Assembly (NCBI GenBank): GCA_965225995.1
Contig: CBDDCF010000019.1
Span: 11,310-75,309 of the forward strand
DNA from: Acidobacteriota bacterium
GTDB taxonomy: Bacteria > Acidobacteriota > UBA6911 > RPQK01 > CBDDCF01
Direction: 5' to 3'
Length of the DNA: 64,000 bases
In this document: piece after piece, positions 6,528 to 53,690 of the stretch
Position numbering within the stretch: position 1 is the stretch's first letter
Layout: each line of letters starts with the position of its first letter
Program-made: the position numbers and the translations under genes
The notes under the pieces: generated by a model
What the model was told of the DNA's origin: nothing
What the model saw: only the letters and a program-made list of their open reading frames with translations
Databases searched by the model: none

Positions 6528-7421
6528 TAGGAACGTCCCATTCTGAAACTCTCCGAAGGCCTGACGCAGTTCCTGCTGCGTGTTCATGACGATCGGGCCG
6601 TACCAGGCAACCGGTTCCTGCAGAGGCTTGCCCGAAACCAGCAGGAAGCGGATTCCCGGCTCTCCGGCTTGCACCACAACTTCGTCTCCGCGATCGAACA
6701 GGATCAACGATCGATTGCCGGCCTCCTGGGGCGGAGCCATGTCGGCCCAACCCACACTCTCGGTGGGAACGGCCAACGGTCCTGAGGCGTTGCAAAACCT
6801 CCCGGCGCCCTCAAAGACGTAGCAAAAAGCGTGTCGGGTGGTCTCGACCGGGATCCGTTTACGCAACCCCGGAGGAACTGAGATATCGAGGTAATGAGGA
6901 TCGGCCGCAATCCCTTCCACTGGACCGCGGACACCCCAACCCTGACCACAAATCACACGTATCGAGGTTCCGTCGTCCTCCATCAGCTCTGGAATTCCCT
7001 CTGCTTGAATCTCCTGGTAGCGGGGAGCAGTCATCTTGAGCGAGGAAGGGAGATTGGCCCAAAGCTGGAACCCGTGCATTCGCTGCTGCTGATCACCACG
7101 CGGCATTTCCTGGTGGACAATGCCGTTTCCCGCCGTCATCCATTGCACATCGCCAGGACCGATCGTGCCCTCATTTCCCAGACTGTCAGCATGATCCACA
7201 TTTCCCGCCAAGACGTATGTAATGGTCTCGATTCCACGATGTGGATGCCAGGGAAAACCGGCCTGATAATCCTCCGGGCGGTCATTTCGAAAATCGTCAA
7301 GCAACAGGAAAGGATCGAATTCCCGGGTCTTTCCAAAGCCGAAGGCGCGCTGCAGCTTCACTCCCGCTCCCTCCAGCGTTGGTTTGGCCTGAATATGCTG
7401 TTTGACTGGGCGAATAGACAT
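6495..7421 (-). CDS. pirin-family protein (C-terminal tail replaced by IS630 end)
   Basis: 308-aa ORF with bicupin pirin motifs (GFPWHPHRGIETITYVLAG, GDVQWMTAGNGIVHQE). After the TA-containing Leu codon, the last 10 codons (KHGCPISSRC) and the stop lie inside the right end of IS630 copy 1. Confidence 0.9.
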   Translation of the reverse strand: MSIRPVKQHIQAKPTLEGAGVKLQRAFGFGKTREFDPFLLLDDFRNDRPEDYQAGFPWHPHRGIETITYVLAGNVDHADSLGNEGTIGPGDVQWMTAGNGIVHQEMPRGDQQQRMHGFQLWANLPSSLKMTAPRYQEIQAEGIPELMEDDGTSIRVICGQGWGVRGPVEGIAADPHYLDISVPPGLRKRIPVETTRHAFCYVFEGAGRFCNASGPLAVPTESVGWADMAPPQEAGNRSLILFDRGDEVVVQAGEPGIRFLLVSGKPLQEPVAWYGPIVMNTQQELRQAFGEFQNGTFLKHGCPISSRC

Positions 7422-48041: not shown

Positions 48042-50030
48042 CTAGTGTCCACCGACGAGTATAAACGCCGCCCAGTAGTAAGGTGCTCGGTCGCCTCGTC
48101 TAATCAACATCAATGTGGCTTCTCGCAAAGACTGGGGCTTGCTCTTCCCTTCCCGAATCCCCCGAAAGAATTCGACGATCAGATCTCGTGTCGGTGCATC
48201 AGGGACCTTCCACAGGCTGACTAATAAGGACTCGGCTCCTGCAGCAAGAAAGCTTCTCCGCAACCCCAAGACACCTTCCGGGCCATACACAAGTCCTTCT
48301 CCCGTGCTACAGGCAGAGAGCACCACCAATTCTGTCGCGGAAAAATCCATGCCCAGGATTTCGAGGGCCGTCAGGTACCCGTCCTCCTGTCCGTCCCCCC
48401 CTTGATTCGCGCCCGAGAAGACGACTCCGGAATGCACCAGGGGATCAAATGCCATCGGCCTTTCGTCGAAGTAACGGACGGTTCCGGCTGGGGAAGCACA
48501 GTCGGCAAAATAGCCGTGAGTCGAGAGTAGAACGAAGCGATGGGCAGAGGCTTCTCGCTTGAAGTTCGCCTCCGTGGCCTCGGGACCCGTCCGCACTGTG
48601 GCCTCCCAGAGCTCGGCCACTTTTCCGACTTCTTCAAGCGTCTCATCCAAATCCTCCCAGGATGCATTCACGCCTGCGCAATAGCCTCGACTGACATCTC
48701 GACCCGTCCCAAACTCGCTCGGGAGAGTTGGATAGATCTTCGAATACTGTGCGCCTCCGACGGCATATAGTTCCCGGCCCCCCGCTGTTTGTGGTTTCCG
48801 CTCCAGTTCTCTGGCGGTGCCGAGGTAGCTCACGGTGTAATCTTCCAGCAGGAACCGATCATCCAAGTCGATGAGGGTCTCAAAAGGAAGCAGGTGAAGT
48901 GCGCCATCGGGTATGATGAGGAGGCGACGGATCCCGGGACCCCATCGCTCCTTCAGGGGCTTGAACAGTCGCGCATAAAGCGTCGCTGCCGACCTTTTGT
49001 AGTCAACTACGCCCTCCGTCCATCGCAGATCTTGAACATCAGCCTCAGCCTCACGGGCGTCGTAAAGCGGTACCAAGTCTACTTCATCCCGCTGGATCAC
49101 AAATGCCACCAGGGTACCCAAGGCTGCGTATTCGATAAGCGCCGTGTCTTCCGGAAGCAACGCTCGCACCTGATCCAAGGATAGGTCTTCACTCACAAAC
49201 AAGTCATCGGCCGCGCGACTCAATGCTGCCTCGACGAGCCGCCGTTCATTCAGGAGTTCCTCCAAGCGAGCCAACAGCACATCGGCATGCTGTGAATCTC
49301 CTCTCTGGATGGCAATGTTGACCTTTGAGATTTGGGAGAGAACTCTTCGGCGTCGAACCCACAGATTGTCGTCGCCGTTGGACGCGGCCAGTTCCCGTCT
49401 TCGGATGAGGGCTCTGAGCACACTCATCCGGTGATTTCCCACGAGTGTGAAGGCCTCTTCTACGCGTCCCAGGTTGAAGGCTGCGGCAGCCGCAAGGAAA
49501 TACGAAGGTCGCGAGGAAAGCGAAAAATATTCGGCGGCGGCCTGACTTCCAGCCTGAAGCGAAGAGACTGTGCGAAGTTCAAACCCCCGCGCCGACTCAA
49601 TTGCGGATTCCAGCGCCCCTTCCCAGTCTCCGAGACGAAGCTGGGCGACACTCATATGATGGTAGATGATGGGGATGTCTGGATCTTCTGCTGCGACTCG
49701 GGGTAGGACCTGCCGTAGCAGTCTCAAACCCGATTCCGGTTTACCTAGTCGGATCTGGGCCATGCCGAGATCAATCCCGGGAACGACGAAGTCTGGGATT
49801 TCAAATGCAGAATCCGGAAAAATTCTCTCGGCAGCCAGGAGATGCTGTTGAGCTTCGGTCAGTTGGCCATTCTGGTAGGCCGCCAATGCCATCGCGGAGC
49901 GAATCGAGACTTGTCCAGGAGTTCCTTCGCTGAAACTGAGCGCGACCCGATAGCTGCGCAACGCCTCTTCGTAGTTTCTCGTACCAGCCAGAGTTGAACC
50001 CAACGGGACGAGGACTGACACTAGACCCAA
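48042..50030 (-). CDS. TPR + CHAT (caspase-like protease) domain protein; 5' end uncertain
   Basis: N-terminal TPR-like repeats and a C-terminal CHAT domain with His and Cys contexts (LLSTHGYF, VVLSACSTGEG). The only start is a TTG at 50030. The frame stays open to 50096 and abuts the IS1380-like element, so the gene may be 5'-truncated. Confidence 0.75.
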   Translation of the reverse strand: MGLVSVLVPLGSTLAGTRNYEEALRSYRVALSFSEGTPGQVSIRSAMALAAYQNGQLTEAQQHLLAAERIFPDSAFEIPDFVVPGIDLGMAQIRLGKPESGLRLLRQVLPRVAAEDPDIPIIYHHMSVAQLRLGDWEGALESAIESARGFELRTVSSLQAGSQAAAEYFSLSSRPSYFLAAAAAFNLGRVEEAFTLVGNHRMSVLRALIRRRELAASNGDDNLWVRRRRVLSQISKVNIAIQRGDSQHADVLLARLEELLNERRLVEAALSRAADDLFVSEDLSLDQVRALLPEDTALIEYAALGTLVAFVIQRDEVDLVPLYDAREAEADVQDLRWTEGVVDYKRSAATLYARLFKPLKERWGPGIRRLLIIPDGALHLLPFETLIDLDDRFLLEDYTVSYLGTARELERKPQTAGGRELYAVGGAQYSKIYPTLPSEFGTGRDVSRGYCAGVNASWEDLDETLEEVGKVAELWEATVRTGPEATEANFKREASAHRFVLLSTHGYFADCASPAGTVRYFDERPMAFDPLVHSGVVFSGANQGGDGQEDGYLTALEILGMDFSATELVVLSACSTGEGLVYGPEGVLGLRRSFLAAGAESLLVSLWKVPDAPTRDLIVEFFRGIREGKSKPQSLREATLMLIRRGDRAPYYWAAFILVGGH

Positions 50031-50146: not shown

Positions 50147-50335
50147 GTGAACCCAAAAGATATCGAAATCCTGCGCGGGGGCAACATCCATTATGCGATT
50201 TCGGATCGAGTCCGAGCCGTGGACTGCGGGGGGCTGGGTGTGATCCAGCTGCTGGTCAAGCAGCTGGAACTGGCCGAAACCATCGACCAACGGGTGAAGG
50301 TGCTGGAGCGGCATCTGCCGTACCGGGAATCGGAT
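50147..50335 (+). pseudogene. IS1380-like transposase, 5' fragment (63 codons)
   Basis: ...GGLGVIQLLVKQLELAETIDQRVKVLERHLPYRESD ends exactly at the insertion site of the IS1595-family element. It resumes in frame at 52449 (HVLNLIYNV...). Confidence 0.75.
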
Positions 50336-50347
50336 GGGAATTATATA

Positions 50348-50376
50348 TTGACTTACCCAAGATTATCGACTATACT
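50348..50376 (+). promoter_or_regulatory. candidate sigma70 promoter inside the left terminal repeat (TTGACT-17 nt-TATACT)
   Basis: TTGACT at 50348..50353 and TATACT at 50371..50376, followed by AAGGAG and the transposase ATG at 50400. Confidence 0.45.
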
Positions 50377-50399
50377 GTTTTCAGTAAAGGAGATAGAAA

Positions 50400-51332
50400 A
50401 TGTCAGGTACGGCCCCAGGTAAGTCCCACAGGAAAGGTCTTTCGCTCATTCAATTGACAAGGATATTCCCATCCGATCTCAAGGCCGAGCAGTGGTTCGT
50501 TAAGATGCGCTGGCCCAAAGGCGTCCAGTGTATCCGTTGCGGATCGGCTAACATTCAGGAGCGCCCGACCCGGAAGCCTCAACCTTTCCGATGCCGGGAT
50601 TGCCGCAAGGATTTTTCGGTCAAGACCGGAACATTGATGCACAACTCGCGTCTCGGTTGCCAGACTTGGGCTATCGCCATCTATCTTGTGACAACTCACC
50701 TGAAGGGCGTCAGCAGCATGAAGCTCCACCGCGATCTGAACATCACGCAAAAGAGTGCATGGTATCTCTCGCACCGCATCCGAGACGCATGGGAGAAGAA
50801 AACGGGTTTGTTTGCTGGACCTGTAGAGGTGGACGAATCCTACTTTGGAGGGAAAGAGCGCAACAAGCATGCGACCCGGAAACTCCGGTCCGGGCGCGGA
50901 CCGGTCGGCAAGGTGGCTGTGGTCGGAGTCAAGGACCGCGCCACGAACCAGGTTTCCGCCACTCCCGTTCAACAACCTGACCGGAAATCCCTCAGAACCT
51001 TCGTCCGGGACCGGGTTTCCCCCAAGGCTCAGCTTTACACGGATGGCAATCCATCCTATGAAGGATTCCAGAAACACGAGGCCGTGCGCCACCATGTCGG
51101 TGAGTACGTCCGGGGTATGGCGCACACCAACGGAATTGAAAGCTTCTGGTCCATGCTCAAGCGAGGCTACATAGGAACCTTTCACCGCATCAGCCCGAAA
51201 CATCTGGGGCGCTACGTCCGGGAGTTTGCTGGGCGCCACAACGACCGTTGCCTGGACACAATCGATCAAATGGCCTCGATCGTTCGGGGCATGGACGGAA
51301 AAAGGTTGAGCTACAAAGACCTCATCGGGTAA
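50400..51332 (+). CDS. IS1595-family transposase (zinc ribbon + ISXO2-like DDE domain)
   Basis: 310-aa ORF with an N-terminal zinc ribbon (CIRCGSANI...FRCRDCRKDFSVKTGT) and a DDE region (VEVDESYFGG, LYTDGNPSY, NGIESFWSMLKRG). AAGGAG lies upstream. Confidence 0.9.
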   Translation: MSGTAPGKSHRKGLSLIQLTRIFPSDLKAEQWFVKMRWPKGVQCIRCGSANIQERPTRKPQPFRCRDCRKDFSVKTGTLMHNSRLGCQTWAIAIYLVTTHLKGVSSMKLHRDLNITQKSAWYLSHRIRDAWEKKTGLFAGPVEVDESYFGGKERNKHATRKLRSGRGPVGKVAVVGVKDRATNQVSATPVQQPDRKSLRTFVRDRVSPKAQLYTDGNPSYEGFQKHEAVRHHVGEYVRGMAHTNGIESFWSMLKRGYIGTFHRISPKHLGRYVREFAGRHNDRCLDTIDQMASIVRGMDGKRLSYKDLIG

Positions 51333-51356
51333 GTTGTTGCCATGGAACGCATAGTC

Positions 51357-51617
51357 CTACCCGTTTATTTCGAGTTTGATCAGGAAGCCATGGGCCGTTT
51401 TGCTGACGCGATGCGTGCGGCGGCGGCTGGGTCGGAGGATGTGCTTGGCCATCTTTCGGGAGAGTGCTTTGGCCAGATCTGGGACGAATGCGTTGAGTTC
51501 ACCGAAGGCGTGCGTCCGTTCGCAGGTGGGGCAAAGTACGTTATCGGGTTCGCCATTGACGATGACTACCTGCGCCTCCGTGCCGCATATCTGGCAGAAG
51601 AATACCGGTCTTCTCAT
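51357..51617 (-). CDS. cargo ORF 3: 86-aa zinc-ribbon protein (hypothetical)
   Basis: MRRPVFFCQICGTEAQVVIVNGEPDNVLCPTCERTHAF... (CxxC-17-CxxC). GAGGGAG lies 7 nt upstream of the ATG at 51617. It is fully antisense to the + strand ORF 51342..51635, so the strand assignment is not certain. Confidence 0.4.
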   Translation of the reverse strand: MRRPVFFCQICGTEAQVVIVNGEPDNVLCPTCERTHAFGELNAFVPDLAKALSRKMAKHILRPSRRRTHRVSKTAHGFLIKLEING

Positions 51618-51748
51618 GTCACGACTCCCTCTTAATTTGCGTTCAAATAACCCATTGGGTAAGATTCCCGGCATGGGTAAATATGCCAAGCCTCTATCTA
51701 TTCCCGATTCTCCAGAGAACGTGGCCAGGGCCGTTTTGCAGAAGAAGC

Positions 51749-52006
51749 CTAAAAAGGAGGACGCTGTATATCCTGACCATCCCTCCAATGAAATGCCTCC
51801 AGAAGCAATTGGTGAAGCCGTGAAATATTTTCAGCGTCGCTGGCGGTTAAAGTTCCAATCCTAGGCTGTTCCCTTGTCACCCGTTTTACGTAGTGAGCAA
51901 GACGATTAAGAAACTTCTGCTTAACTTCTTGGTCCAGCTCTCGAATCGTGAGATTTAAGGATTCAAAGAATCCTGATATTGCGTTACATGTTTCTTCAGG
52001 CGTCAT
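51749..52006 (-). CDS. cargo ORF 2: 85-aa hypothetical protein
   Basis: Internal ATG of ORF 51749..52105 (MTPEETCNAISGFFESLNLTIRELDQEVKQKFLNRLAHYVKR...). It starts 14 nt after the stop of cargo ORF 1 and has no clear Shine-Dalgarno. It overlaps the + strand ORF 51673..51864 (MGKYAKPLSIPDSPENVARAVLQKKPKKE...). Confidence 0.3.
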   Translation of the reverse strand: MTPEETCNAISGFFESLNLTIRELDQEVKQKFLNRLAHYVKRVTREQPRIGTLTASDAENISRLHQLLLEAFHWRDGQDIQRPPF

Positions 52007-52020
52007 AATTGGTTTATAGG

Positions 52021-52251
52021 CTAATTTGGAATCAATTCGACAAACCCACGCACCACTGTTCTGGTGCGCCCGATGGCTGGACCGGAGACCGTCCCCGGAG
52101 CGCACATAAGATCGTCATCCGACCTAGGCAACCGTTCCGACGACAGGATGTATTGACGGAGTTCCTCTTGATTTTTCTTGGGAAGCCGGAGATAGGGAGC
52201 CCGGTCTTTTTCGGGTAGGTGGGATAGTAACTCGGCTAGTATTAAGGCCAT
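52021..52251 (-). CDS. cargo ORF 1: 76-aa hypothetical protein
   Basis: MALILAELLSHLPEKDRAPYLRLPKKNQEELRQYILSSERLP.... GAGGAG lies 8 nt upstream of the ATG at 52251. It is the first ORF downstream of the right-end promoter candidate. Confidence 0.45.
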   Translation of the reverse strand: MALILAELLSHLPEKDRAPYLRLPKKNQEELRQYILSSERLPRSDDDLMCAPGTVSGPAIGRTRTVVRGFVELIPN

Positions 52252-52360
52252 TTCGAGTTCTCCTCGTTAGGAGAACCCTTGACCTTGACTCAAGAGGTGA
52301 GGCACAATGCCGACATCTCTAGAGTATCTTCTGCCGGGTTCCCTGTTAAGGCGGCAGACA

Positions 52361-52389
52361 AAAAGACCGGGCAGAAACCCGGTTTTTTT
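52361..52389. terminator. bidirectional intrinsic-terminator-like hairpin
   Basis: AAAAG-ACCGGG-CAGAAA-CCCGGT-TTTTTT: a 6-bp stem (52366..52371 with 52378..52383) flanked by an A run and a T run. Confidence 0.5.
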
Positions 52390-52398
52390 GCGTCAGGG

Positions 52399-52428
52399 AC
52401 TATAATACCACACTGGCGGGTAAGTCAA
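52399..52428 (-). promoter_or_regulatory. candidate inward-facing promoter in the right terminal repeat
   Basis: On the minus strand: TTGACT (52428..52423), then TGgTATTAT (extended -10, 15-nt spacer) or TATAGT (18-nt spacer). Confidence 0.35.
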
Positions 52429-52448
52429 TATATAATCCCCAATCGGAT

Positions 52449-53690
52449 CATGTGCTCAATCTGATTTACAACGTCATGACGGGCGGTAGCTGCCTGCAGG
52501 ACGTGGAGGCTCGACGCCGGGACCCGGTGTATCTGGACGCGCTGGGGGCCCGCAAGGTGCTGGCGCCGTCCACGGAGGGGGACTTCCTGCGGCGCTTCGA
52601 CAGGAATTCGATCTGGGATCTGATGGAAGCGGTCAATGAGGCGCGACGGAAAGTGTGGTCGAACCAAGACAAGGAGTTTCACCGTCAGGCCACGATTGAT
52701 GTGGACGGGACGATCGCCCCGACGGATGGACAGTGTAAGAGCGGAATCGGAATGAGCTACACCGGCCACTGGAGCTATCATCCGCTGGTAGTGTCTGTGG
52801 CTGAGACCAACGAGGTGCTCTATTTGGTGAATCGGGCGGGCAACCGACCCTCCCATGAAGGCGCGGCCGAGGTGCTGGATCGGGCCATCGAGTTGGTGCG
52901 CGGTGGTGGTTTCCAGAAGGTGTTGCTGCGGGGCGACACGGATTTTACGCAGACGCGTCATCTGGACCGCTGGGATCAGGAGGGCGTAGAGTTTCTCTTT
53001 GGGGCGGATTCCAGCCAGGGGTTGGTTGGTCGGGCCGAAGGACTGGAGCCCAGCGCCTGGAGTCGGCTGGATCGGGCAAAGAAGAAGAAACTGCGAAGAC
53101 GGCGGCGCAAGAATATCCGCCAGGCCCTGGTCAAAAAGAATGGCTATCGCAATCTGCAACTGGAGCGGGAAGATGTGGCCGAGCTGGCCTAGCGACCGGC
53201 GGCCTGCAAGCAGAACTATCGGCTGGTGGTGGTGCGAAAGCAAATTACGGTCACCCAAGGACAGGGACGGCTCTTTGACGAGACCCGCTATCTGTTCTAT
53301 CTGACCAACCTGCGAAAGGAGTCGGCCAGGGAAGTGGTTTTCTCAGCCAATCGTCGCTGCCATCAGGAGAATGTGGTGGAGCAGCTCAAGAACGGGGTTC
53401 AGGCGATGCGGATGCCCTCGGACAGCCTCGAGTCCAACTGGGCGTACCTGGTGATTGCTGCCCAGGCCTGGAACTTGAAAGCCTGGCTGGGCCTGGTGCA
53501 ATCCGACAAGACGATGGGGCAGCGGATTCTGAAGATGGAGTATCGCCGGTTCCTGCGCCAGCTGGTTCAGATTCCTTGCCAGATCCTGCAGCGGGGGCGA
53601 CGTCTTCTTTACCGGCTGCTGAACGTCAACGACTGGACCGAAACGCTGCTGAGCGGAGTGCCGTCGCCCAAGCGGGTCCGCTACGGCTAA
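52449..53690 (+). pseudogene. IS1380-like transposase, 3' part, with in-frame TAG
   Basis: ORFs 52452..53192 and 53226..53690 share one frame, separated by a TAG at 53190..53192 (EDVAELA*RPAACKQNYRLVVVRKQ). DDE-region motifs include IDVDGTIAP and LRGDTDF. Confidence 0.75.

Follow-up and report, generated by a model that had tools for sequence, protein, structure and literature searches.

Structure of the element and its relatives

The DNA considered here is a 64-kb stretch of an Acidobacteriota contig (the window, by which we mean all 64,000 nucleotides), and our subject is the passenger DNA of an insertion sequence (IS) within it. While passenger-carrying insertion sequences are known, the roles of small unnamed passengers are not. 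The window element is a complete IS1595-family insertion sequence of 2,105 bp (50336-52440), bounded by terminal inverted repeats (IRs) of 23 bp that match at 22 of the 23 positions, with one mismatch. The left IR (50336..50358, + strand, GGGAATTATATATTGACTTACCC) contains an inward-facing TTGACT, the right IR (52418..52440, - strand) pairs with it, and the IRs of relatives share a GGGAATTATATA...TTACCC pattern. The 19-mer core of the repeat occurs at these two places only (0 expected), and no second copy of the element lies within the window. On both sides the octamer AATCGGAT can be read from the sequence as an 8-bp target duplication (50328..50335 on the left and 52441..52448 on the right). 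The transposase gene (50400..51332, + strand, 310 aa) matches DDE_Tnp_IS1595 of Pfam (PF12762; E=2.6e-36, 125 bits against a cut-off of 27) and IS1595 of NCBIfam (NF033547; E=2.8e-53, 181 bits against a cut-off of 75), and its N-terminal zinc ribbon matches PF12760 (E=1.8e-07, 31.4 bits against a cut-off of 25.4). The DDE transposase type, the N-terminal zinc ribbon, and the IRs with their 8-bp duplication are thus all those of the IS1595 family. The insertion site is an IS1380-type transposase gene (PF13701, DDE_Tnp_1_4, E=1.3e-21; window positions 50147-50335 and 52449-53192), and since the IS1380-type reading frame runs on across the 8-bp duplication, one IS is nested in another.

Transposase-based scans of genomes and metagenomes recovered 112 related loci (80 and 32, respectively) at 53-68% identity, and no closer element copy, with more than 68% transposase identity, was found in these genome and metagenome contig scans. 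Because a near-identical copy was not among them, the frames of two small open reading frames (ORFs) in the cargo, ORF 1 and ORF 2, have no comparison set. Exact-protein look-ups of the window transposase and of the + strand ORF at 51342-51635 returned no record. Both members of an IR pair were identified in roughly half of the related loci; most such elements measure 1.5-3.9 kb and exceed the transposase gene by well over 1 kb, which makes passenger DNA the rule in this IS group.

IS1595-family copies with passenger genes are termed transporter IS (tIS) by Siguier, Gagnevin and Chandler (2009), as cited in PMC3129680. In the window element, 1,085 bp separate the transposase stop from the right IR, and relatives of one passenger, a zinc-ribbon gene, are also found in non-IS contexts. 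The element shares with tIS a single DDE transposase with an N-terminal zinc ribbon, short IRs, an 8-bp duplication, and genes between the IRs that are not those of transposition. It differs from them in that its passengers are a two-strand cassette, an accessory ORF of ~50 aa, and orphan sequence, and not ordinary metabolic or resistance genes. A literature search gave no description of these passengers or of either small protein family; neither family is covered by a Pfam or NCBIfam model, and their names in the databases are all "hypothetical". The window cargo is passenger DNA inside an IS1595-family element, as a reading of the region made from the letters alone (the sequence-only reading) had proposed; the transposase families, the IRs and the duplication bear this out, and the ORFs, Shine-Dalgarno (SD) sequences, promoter hexamers and hairpins listed in that reading all lie where it had placed them. 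Altogether, we think it rather probable that the element is a transporter IS with a candidate antisense overlapping gene pair, and that its passenger region is made up of three pieces that differ in their history.

A zinc-ribbon gene and an acidic protein frame on the same bases

The first of these pieces contains ORF 3 on the minus strand (51357..51617), which encodes an 86-aa protein with a pI of 9.9 and a CxxC-17-CxxC ribbon, and has the SD sequence GAGGGAG 7 nt before its ATG. The sequence-only reading recognised no family for ORF 3 or for the two other minus-strand ORFs, which holds for curated families, and ORF 1 and ORF 2 are indeed orphans; for ORF 3, in contrast, an exhaustive HMMER search of 1.84 billion representatives gave 15 matches. 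Ten of the 15 are small proteins of 66-113 aa that align over most of their length at 30-54% identity, and the features shared by the family are a CxxC-17-CPxC ribbon, a helix with the pattern F.EL.A.VP.LA, a basic LR..RRR stretch, and a C-terminal HGF.V.L strand. All four cysteines, the HGF motif and the full length are kept down to 28-30% identity in at least seven lineages, with no internal indels, which requires long-term selection on this family. An SD sequence precedes the gene in all eight loci examined. The pI of the protein ranges from 6.9 to 10.0 and exceeds 9 in five of eight loci, so that its members are mostly basic. The six-frame translation of the window (128,000 aa) contains the CxxC...CxxC pattern no more than three times, one occurrence being the transposase's own. 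ORF 3 is thus a real zinc-ribbon gene.

The zinc-ribbon protein fits no curated family. Its score against DUF5817 is 27.1 bits (E=4.2e-06), below the gathering cut-off of 31 bits, and 11 of 13 family members match DUF5817 at E values up to 0.1 (best 1.3e-07), so that the two are related at best; beyond this, searches of Pfam and NCBIfam gave merely generic zinc-ribbon matches below cut-off. The scans of viral contigs contained no member. In the loci designated L124-127 the gene reads inward from a start 48 nt inside an IS1595-type IR. L117 has the gene behind a methylase-HNH fusion gene and facing the 3' end of an IS1595 transposase gene, a convergent layout like that of the window, and in L118 and L119 an HNH gene lies downstream of it. 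Co-oriented arrays in L117 and L123 both close with the zinc-ribbon gene. An HNH neighbour occurs in two unrelated contexts (L117, 2-550; L118, 5358-5783), the one in L117 being joined to an N6/N4 DNA methylase at the latter's C-terminus, and this neighbourhood may point to a link with restriction-modification-like functions.

On the plus strand, an ORF of 97 aa (51342..51635; the + ORF) begins 9 nt past the transposase stop and covers the bases of ORF 3 in exact reverse-complement codon register, with second codon positions coinciding and positions 1 and 3 swapped. Its product is acidic (pI 4.5), as are most members of its family (pI 4.5-6.1), and a search of 5.8 billion clusters gave four close homologues that had been called as genes (P0002-P0005). 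The sequence-only reading listed this ORF, together with a second one at 51673..51864, as competitors of its minus-strand genes. The former proved to be conserved over the bases of ORF 3 and the latter to be a truncated relic. Conservation confined to the + strand ORFs would have counted against the minus-strand genes, and half of this was seen: the second + strand ORF derives from the one small protein that the IS group conserves, whereas the first is conserved just as strongly as ORF 3, with which it shares its bases. The competing ORFs proved to be the more informative features. In automatic gene calls the acidic + frame was chosen in the window, L113, L114, L115 and L116, and the zinc-ribbon frame in L117-L128; owing to these opposite-strand calls, two halves of one family are split in protein databases.

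In L114, a + strand terminator stands right after the + ORF. A third frame on the plus strand (51376-51864) runs without a stop for 162 aa through the cassette and on into the small ORF that follows; since stop codons interrupt it in L114 and L115, this frame is not a conserved one. A deletion of 1 nt in L115 joins the + ORF to the third frame, yielding the 186-aa protein P0003.

Exchange of the cassette between elements

The two overlapping frames occupy a conserved cassette of 280 bp (51338..51620), whose left edge is the ATG of the + ORF and whose right edge is the ATG of ORF 3. The four homologues of the + ORF come from the contigs L113, L114, L115 and L116. In L113, L114 and L116 the cassette DNA is 87-93% identical to that of the window, whereas the transposase protein is only 54-64% identical, and the cassette is found at another place, between the small ORF and the right IR and ~140 nt from the latter. 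The high identity of the cassette, the low identity of the transposase and the difference in position together indicate that the cassette moves between elements as a unit. L115 presents another situation: it matches the window at 90% identity over a stretch that starts within the transposase gene, includes the cassette and reaches position 51746, and it is divergent thereafter. The zinc-ribbon gene was found in none of the other 112 loci that had been selected by transposase, and is therefore an occasional passenger and not a core part of the IS group.

A far smaller unit was found at three sites of one 3-Mb contig (L120, L121 and L122; 4953-5309 in each). This unit is 357 bp long, has no transposase, and is bounded by IS1595-like terminal inverted repeats (TIRs) of roughly 26 bp (GGGGCTTATAAAGCCTAGTTGACAAA), with its own 8-bp duplication at each site (TTATATTG, TAATATTG and AATTTATT). 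Its only called gene is the zinc-ribbon ORF, and an antisense ORF covers the same bases. Each IR is followed by an SD sequence and an ATG, as TAGGAG-9-ATG for the zinc-ribbon ORF and AAGGAG-6-ATG for the antisense ORF. The three copies are mutually 99.7% identical over the shared 362-371 bp. With IS-type TIRs, 8-bp duplications, several copies and no transposase, the L120-122 unit is a mobile insertion cassette (MIC) in the sense of PMC3129680, akin also to miniature inverted-repeat transposable elements (MITEs); an example of a MIC is MIC231 of IS231 (De Palmenaer et al. 2004, as cited in PMC3129680). The unit is distinctive in being almost wholly coding on both strands, and the window cassette differs in that it sits in a full IS and is not a free MIC. 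The 357-bp unit is presumably moved in trans by a cognate transposase.

Evidence for selection on both strands of the cassette

The selection comparison comprised 8 or 9 cassette sequences from 7 lineages, and as a control we used 2,410 sets from the transposase genes of the same elements, each with 7-9 random taxa and a random 84-codon window. In the cassette, differences at codon positions 1, 2 and 3 amounted to 0.49, 0.31 and 0.49; in the control, position 3 exceeded position 1 by 0.26, and by 0.12 at minimum. The ratio of antisense-frame to zinc-ribbon-frame identity was 0.94 in the cassette as against 0.56 ± 0.04 in the control (maximum 0.79), and the probability that the same amino acid was encoded by the same codon was 0.59 as against 0.45 ± 0.05.

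Single-base differences were then sorted by their effect in each frame. Substitutions that change both proteins (NN) occurred at a rate of 0.111, those that change the zinc-ribbon protein alone (NS) at 0.256, those that change the antisense protein alone (SN) at 0.299, and those that change neither (SS) at 0.748. The measure of antisense-frame selection, dNN/dNS, was 0.43, compared with a control median of 0.96 and a 1-99% range of 0.53-2.19. The relative constraint of the two frames, dNS/dSN, was 0.86 in the cassette and 0.11 in the control, and dSN/dSS in the cassette was 0.40. The second frame thus shows purifying selection beyond what the first frame imposes, as is expected of an overlapping pair. 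Purifying selection appears to act about equally strongly on the two cassette frames, and judging from these substitution patterns the cassette is most likely a fully overlapping antisense gene pair.

A competing explanation is that the zinc-ribbon gene alone is functional and that the + ORF is a shadow frame, favoured by gene callers for its length, with its conservation resulting from codon bias, from selection on the mRNA or on an antisense transcript, or from small-sample noise. Several observations agree with this and weigh against a second coding frame. The antisense register is open in 46% of the 84-codon windows of the transposase genes, and for that reason an open + frame in distant relatives was discarded as evidence. 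A good SD sequence precedes the + ORF in merely two of seven loci, being weak or absent in most, and BLOSUM sums favour the zinc-ribbon frame in the most divergent pairs. Structure prediction is divided: the best AF2 model of the + ORF has a compact helix/hairpin fold (pLDDT 76, pTM 0.65, from a 3-sequence alignment), but the four other models are poor (58-47) and mutually discordant, so that one of five is confident. Foldseek comparison of both AF2 models with the PDB gave nothing better than E=0.14, and profile searches of both protein families against PDB sequences gave noise only; nor does either protein fit a known family. Among the closest copies dN/dS is erratic (0.38, 0.50 and 0.71 in the + frame; 2.63, 1.23 and 0.28 in the - frame), and neither these values nor codon usage decide between ORF 3 and the + ORF. 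The statistics on selection draw on seven lineages, and the pairs compared are not independent of one another. The 357-bp copies are near-identical, and their intact ORFs are therefore uninformative on selection in that form. The 1-nt deletion of L115 and a 2-nt insertion in L116 fall inside the cassette, in low-coverage assemblies where they could be errors or decay. On a separate point, a derivation of the zinc-ribbon protein from the zinc ribbon of the transposase was considered and rejected, as hhalign against 23 transposase N-termini gave a probability of 26.8%.

What argues against a mere shadow frame is that the identity ratio of 0.94 exceeds the control maximum, that dNN/dNS lies below the first percentile of the control, and that the AAGGAG-6-ATG start precedes the + ORF in the 357-bp unit. 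Moreover, a 3-base periodicity with position 2 most conserved is a prediction of two-strand coding and not of RNA structure. We therefore regard the shadow-frame explanation as unlikely, while keeping it in serious consideration. The strongest form of the alternative is that the cassette is a true two-strand gene that encodes a basic and an acidic protein codon for codon, has been selected across several phyla, has spread with IS1595-type ends down to the 357-bp unit, and gives mutually exclusive products; in this complete form we hold it tentatively, as a possibility that falls a little short of an even chance.

The frameshifts of L115 and L116, together with dN/dS values near 1 among the closest copies, the truncation of the small ORF, and the orphan status of ORF 1 and ORF 2, would also fit a view in which the cargo is inert, decaying rearrangement debris whose ORFs are intact merely through recent insertion. 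We consider this very unlikely for the cargo as a whole, as the zinc-ribbon family has kept its length, its four cysteines and its HGF motif at 28-30% identity in seven or more lineages. For the segment 51747-52417 alone, it could still hold.

A small accessory protein of the IS group and its relic

The second piece of the cargo is a relic of a small protein that accompanies the IS group. Translated searches of all cargo ORFs against the related loci showed that only the N-terminal 27 residues of the + strand ORF at 51673..51864 are conserved (residues 3-29; 51679-51759, KYAKPLSIPDSPENVARAVLQKKPKKE). In the relatives these residues belong to a basic protein of ~45-60 aa with the consensus M..K/R-rich..RGRP....MP.PIPDTPENIARAIM.GPPKK.W.YLKK, which is present on the transposase strand in 68 of 116 loci and whose ORF ends within ~25 nt of the right IR in at least 15. 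A profile search gave 795 clusters of this small protein, all unnamed or "hypothetical" and none with a Pfam domain. A basic protein of ~50 aa is normally the last gene of the elements of this IS1595 subgroup; as the window copy has neither the RGRP head nor the W.YLK tail, it looks like a truncated relic. The RGRP motif is AT-hook-like and the core of the IRs is AT-rich (ATTATATA), and from this combination the small RGRP protein may be an overlooked accessory factor for transposition.

Some members of this group with an RGRP...TPE..A sequence end in a CxxC...CxxC zinc ribbon in place of PPKK.W.YLK (6458-6691 in L050 and L051; 6606-6830 in L061). In L004 and L005, the small ORF is immediately followed by a 13-nt remnant of the right IR (6541-6553), with a full right IR of 30 bp (6956-6985) another 400 bp away, a layout which suggests that right-end add-ons were gained through the use of a more distal end.

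The orphan segment at the right end

The third piece is a lineage-specific segment of low GC content (51747..52417). Homology with L115 stops at 51746, and the segment has no DNA or protein relatives. The drop in GC content that the sequence-only reading had described around 51.85-52.05 kb was measured as 0.43-0.46 at 51.8-52.1 kb, compared with 0.54-0.60 around it. Two minus-strand ORFs lie here: ORF 1 (52021..52251, 76 aa), with the SD sequence GAGGAG 8 nt before its ATG, and ORF 2 (51749..52006, 85 aa), which has no SD sequence and whose stop falls at the break in homology, L115 homology ending three bases before it. No homologue of ORF 1 or ORF 2 was found in 5.8 billion protein clusters (a word-indexed search with ORF 1, ORF 2 and ORF 3 joined gave no match), in the 116 related loci, in plasmids, or in viral contigs, and the DNA of 51740-52440 likewise matched nothing in plasmids and viral contigs. 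A single 11-aa pattern match for the segment of ORF 1 and ORF 2 was dismissed as an artefact. Neither ORF has a host-like codon signal (scores of -0.01 and 0.01), and the GC content at third codon positions (GC3) of ORF 2 is 0.40, compared with 0.65 in the host. At the position of ORF 2, L115 carries an unrelated 86-aa minus-strand ORF that begins 8 nt behind a right-end promoter-like TTGACC-17-TAAAAT.

The DNA between ORF 1 and the right end is rich in potential signals. An inward promoter-like TTGACT-18-TATAGT (52399..52428, - strand) matches the consensus at 10 of 12 positions and has its -35 hexamer inside the right IR, and a second promoter-like site, TTGACC-18-CACAAT (52279..52308, + strand, 9 of 12 positions), could start a + strand RNA of ~75 nt. 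Between them lie a hairpin CTGCCG...CGGCAG (52331..52357) and a bidirectional hairpin resembling an intrinsic terminator, A5-GACCGGGC-AGAAA-CCCGGT-T7 (52360..52390), both recognised from sequence and folding. According to folding, the SD sequence of ORF 1 is itself covered by a perfect hairpin, GGGTTCTCCT-AACG-AGGAGAACTC on the minus strand (52255..52278), lying in the 3' arm of this 10-bp structure. The 144-nt minus-strand leader folds into four hairpins at -62.4 kcal/mol (z = -5.9), and the 101-nt plus-strand sequence reaches -39 kcal/mol (z = -3.3). The hairpin at 52366-52383 with its A/T flanks was the sole terminator-like site found; since shuffles gave 2.7 such sites, the count itself is not special. 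L114 has a comparable + strand terminator before its right IR, at the same relative position. The simplest role for the window terminator, which lies 35 nt inside the right end, would be to stop the IS transcript of the + strand and to keep transcription from outside out of the element. From the promoter-like site and the terminator, a + strand RNA of ~75 nt that is antisense to the ORF 1 leader is also plausible. A search of the whole element (52300-52400 included) against Rfam at a permissive threshold gave best scores of 16-22 bits, where the gathering thresholds are 34-111, so that the check proposed in the sequence-only reading for 52300..52400 yielded nothing. Of note, a perfect 13-nt inverted repeat (52199-52211 and 52360-52372) makes the 5' arm of the terminator complementary to a stretch of ORF 1 150 nt away, and this repeat could compete with terminator formation in long transcripts.

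The arrangement proposed in the sequence-only reading was that ORF 1, ORF 2 and ORF 3 form one minus-strand operon, transcribed from the promoter in the right IR, controlled by the leader hairpin and an antisense RNA of 70-80 nt, and acting as an addiction or exclusion module. Several findings are compatible with such an operon: promoter-like sites are suitably placed on both strands together with a terminator, the leader is strongly structured with the SD sequence of ORF 1 within a hairpin, ORF 3 is real, the zinc-ribbon gene ends the co-oriented arrays of L117 and L123, the right-end promoter-like site of L115 precedes a different 86-aa minus-strand ORF at the position of ORF 2, and homology breaks off at 51746, where ORF 2 stops. 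Other findings speak against it. ORF 1 and ORF 2 have neither homologues in any of the collections searched nor a codon signal, ORF 2 has no SD sequence, and in every other locus ORF 3 occurs without them. Moreover, the terminator lies ~10 nt after the predicted start of the IR promoter, and most transcripts from this promoter should therefore stop there unless termination is prevented. As there was also no match to a toxin, antitoxin, defence or Rfam family, we judge the operon to be improbable; of its three genes, ORF 3 stands as a real gene, and ORF 1 and ORF 2 found no support.

Other sequence features

The transposase gene is preceded by a candidate sigma-70-like promoter, TTGACT-17-TATACT (50348..50376, + strand), which rests on a consensus match at 10 of 12 positions. 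The inward promoter-like hexamers described for both IRs in the sequence-only reading are thus present, with 10 of 12 positions each, and right-end sites recur in L115, L120 and L124, the IRs of the latter two carrying TTGAC. In total, the element has 4 promoter-like sites, compared with 1.2 ± 1.3 in shuffled sequences. One promoter-like sequence, TCGATA-18-TATAAT (50369-50340, - strand), points from the left end outwards into the flanking DNA. A perfect 13-nt inverted repeat connects 50329-50341, which consists of target duplication and the first 6 nt of the left IR, with 50465-50477, which corresponds to transposase codons 22-26; chance would give ~0.06 such pairs in 2.8 kb. Transcripts that read into the element could fold back at this repeat, or, one arm being target DNA, its presence could be coincidental. 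Directly upstream of the nested IS pair, the minus strand encodes a 662-aa protein with TPR and CHAT domains (48042-50030; CHAT E=7e-66).

Possible working of the element and comparison with known systems

How the element might work can be outlined as follows. The transposase would act on the two 23-bp ends and make the 8-bp duplication, carrying along everything between the ends. Because the + ORF begins 9 nt past the transposase stop, the acidic protein would be made from the transposase transcript, and the zinc-ribbon gene would be expressed from transcripts that enter at the right end. These transcripts would be complementary and convergent, so that expression of either should hamper that of its counterpart and also affect the transposase mRNA at its 3' end. 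As a guess, the basic zinc-ribbon protein might bind nucleic acid, the acidic protein might be its partner or antagonist, and both together might serve the element as a regulator pair or an addiction-like pair. What such a pair would do for the element is, at our best guess, regulation or something akin to addiction.

The zinc-ribbon protein recalls the end-binding regulators of the InsA type of IS1, being a small basic protein (~85-90 aa) with an N-terminal CxxC...CxxC in an element of the IS1/IS1595 lineage. It differs from InsA in that it matches neither NF050000 nor NF033558 and none of the zinc-domain models of IS1 or IS1595, has no recognised helix-turn-helix, and is encoded opposite to the transposase strand. 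The homology to the N-terminus of the cognate transposase that marks InsA-like regulators was not found, and the likeness is one of resemblance only.

Toxin-antitoxin modules of types I and II share with the cargo their small size, a basic/acidic pair, a possible control by antisense RNA, and carriage on mobile elements. They differ from it in that no toxin or antitoxin domain was matched, that the genes do not follow one another within a single operon, and that there is no small hydrophobic toxin. Scans of the five ORFs with Pfam, NCBIfam, PADLOC and PHROGs showed no toxin, antitoxin or defence family, the PADLOC matches being weak (best E 0.0064). With regard to type II modules, neither the five ORFs nor the two protein families contain a toxin or antitoxin domain at curated cut-off. 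As for type I, the 76-aa product of ORF 1 is not hydrophobic, and an antisense RNA is plausible from the promoter-like site and the terminator. An addiction or exclusion function of the cargo, by analogy with such modules, would be pure inference. Taken as a whole, the interpretation in the sequence-only reading is thus partly supported.

Reported antisense overlapping protein-coding pairs in bacteria include cosA in Pseudomonas fluorescens and several candidates in E. coli O157. The window cassette has in common with these that opposite-strand ORFs cover the same bases and that there is evidence of selection on the second frame. It differs in that the overlap is complete, that the partners are of similar length, and that they are conserved to ~30% identity across several bacterial phyla and carried on a mobile element.

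Significance

Antisense protein pairs are contested in bacteria, and to our knowledge few examples have comparative support. At ~360 bp, the cassette is a small and deeply conserved candidate for an antisense protein pair whose overlap is complete, and it is a case in which gene callers pick opposite strands of one cassette in different genomes. The ~50-aa protein with the RGRP...PIPDTPENIARAIM...PPKKxWxYLK sequence is the unnamed usual last gene of a whole IS1595 subgroup, and a possible accessory factor. If the cassette is a true two-strand gene, it would provide its elements with a built-in switch, for instance between transposase-linked and anti-transposase states, or with a toxin/antidote-like pair.

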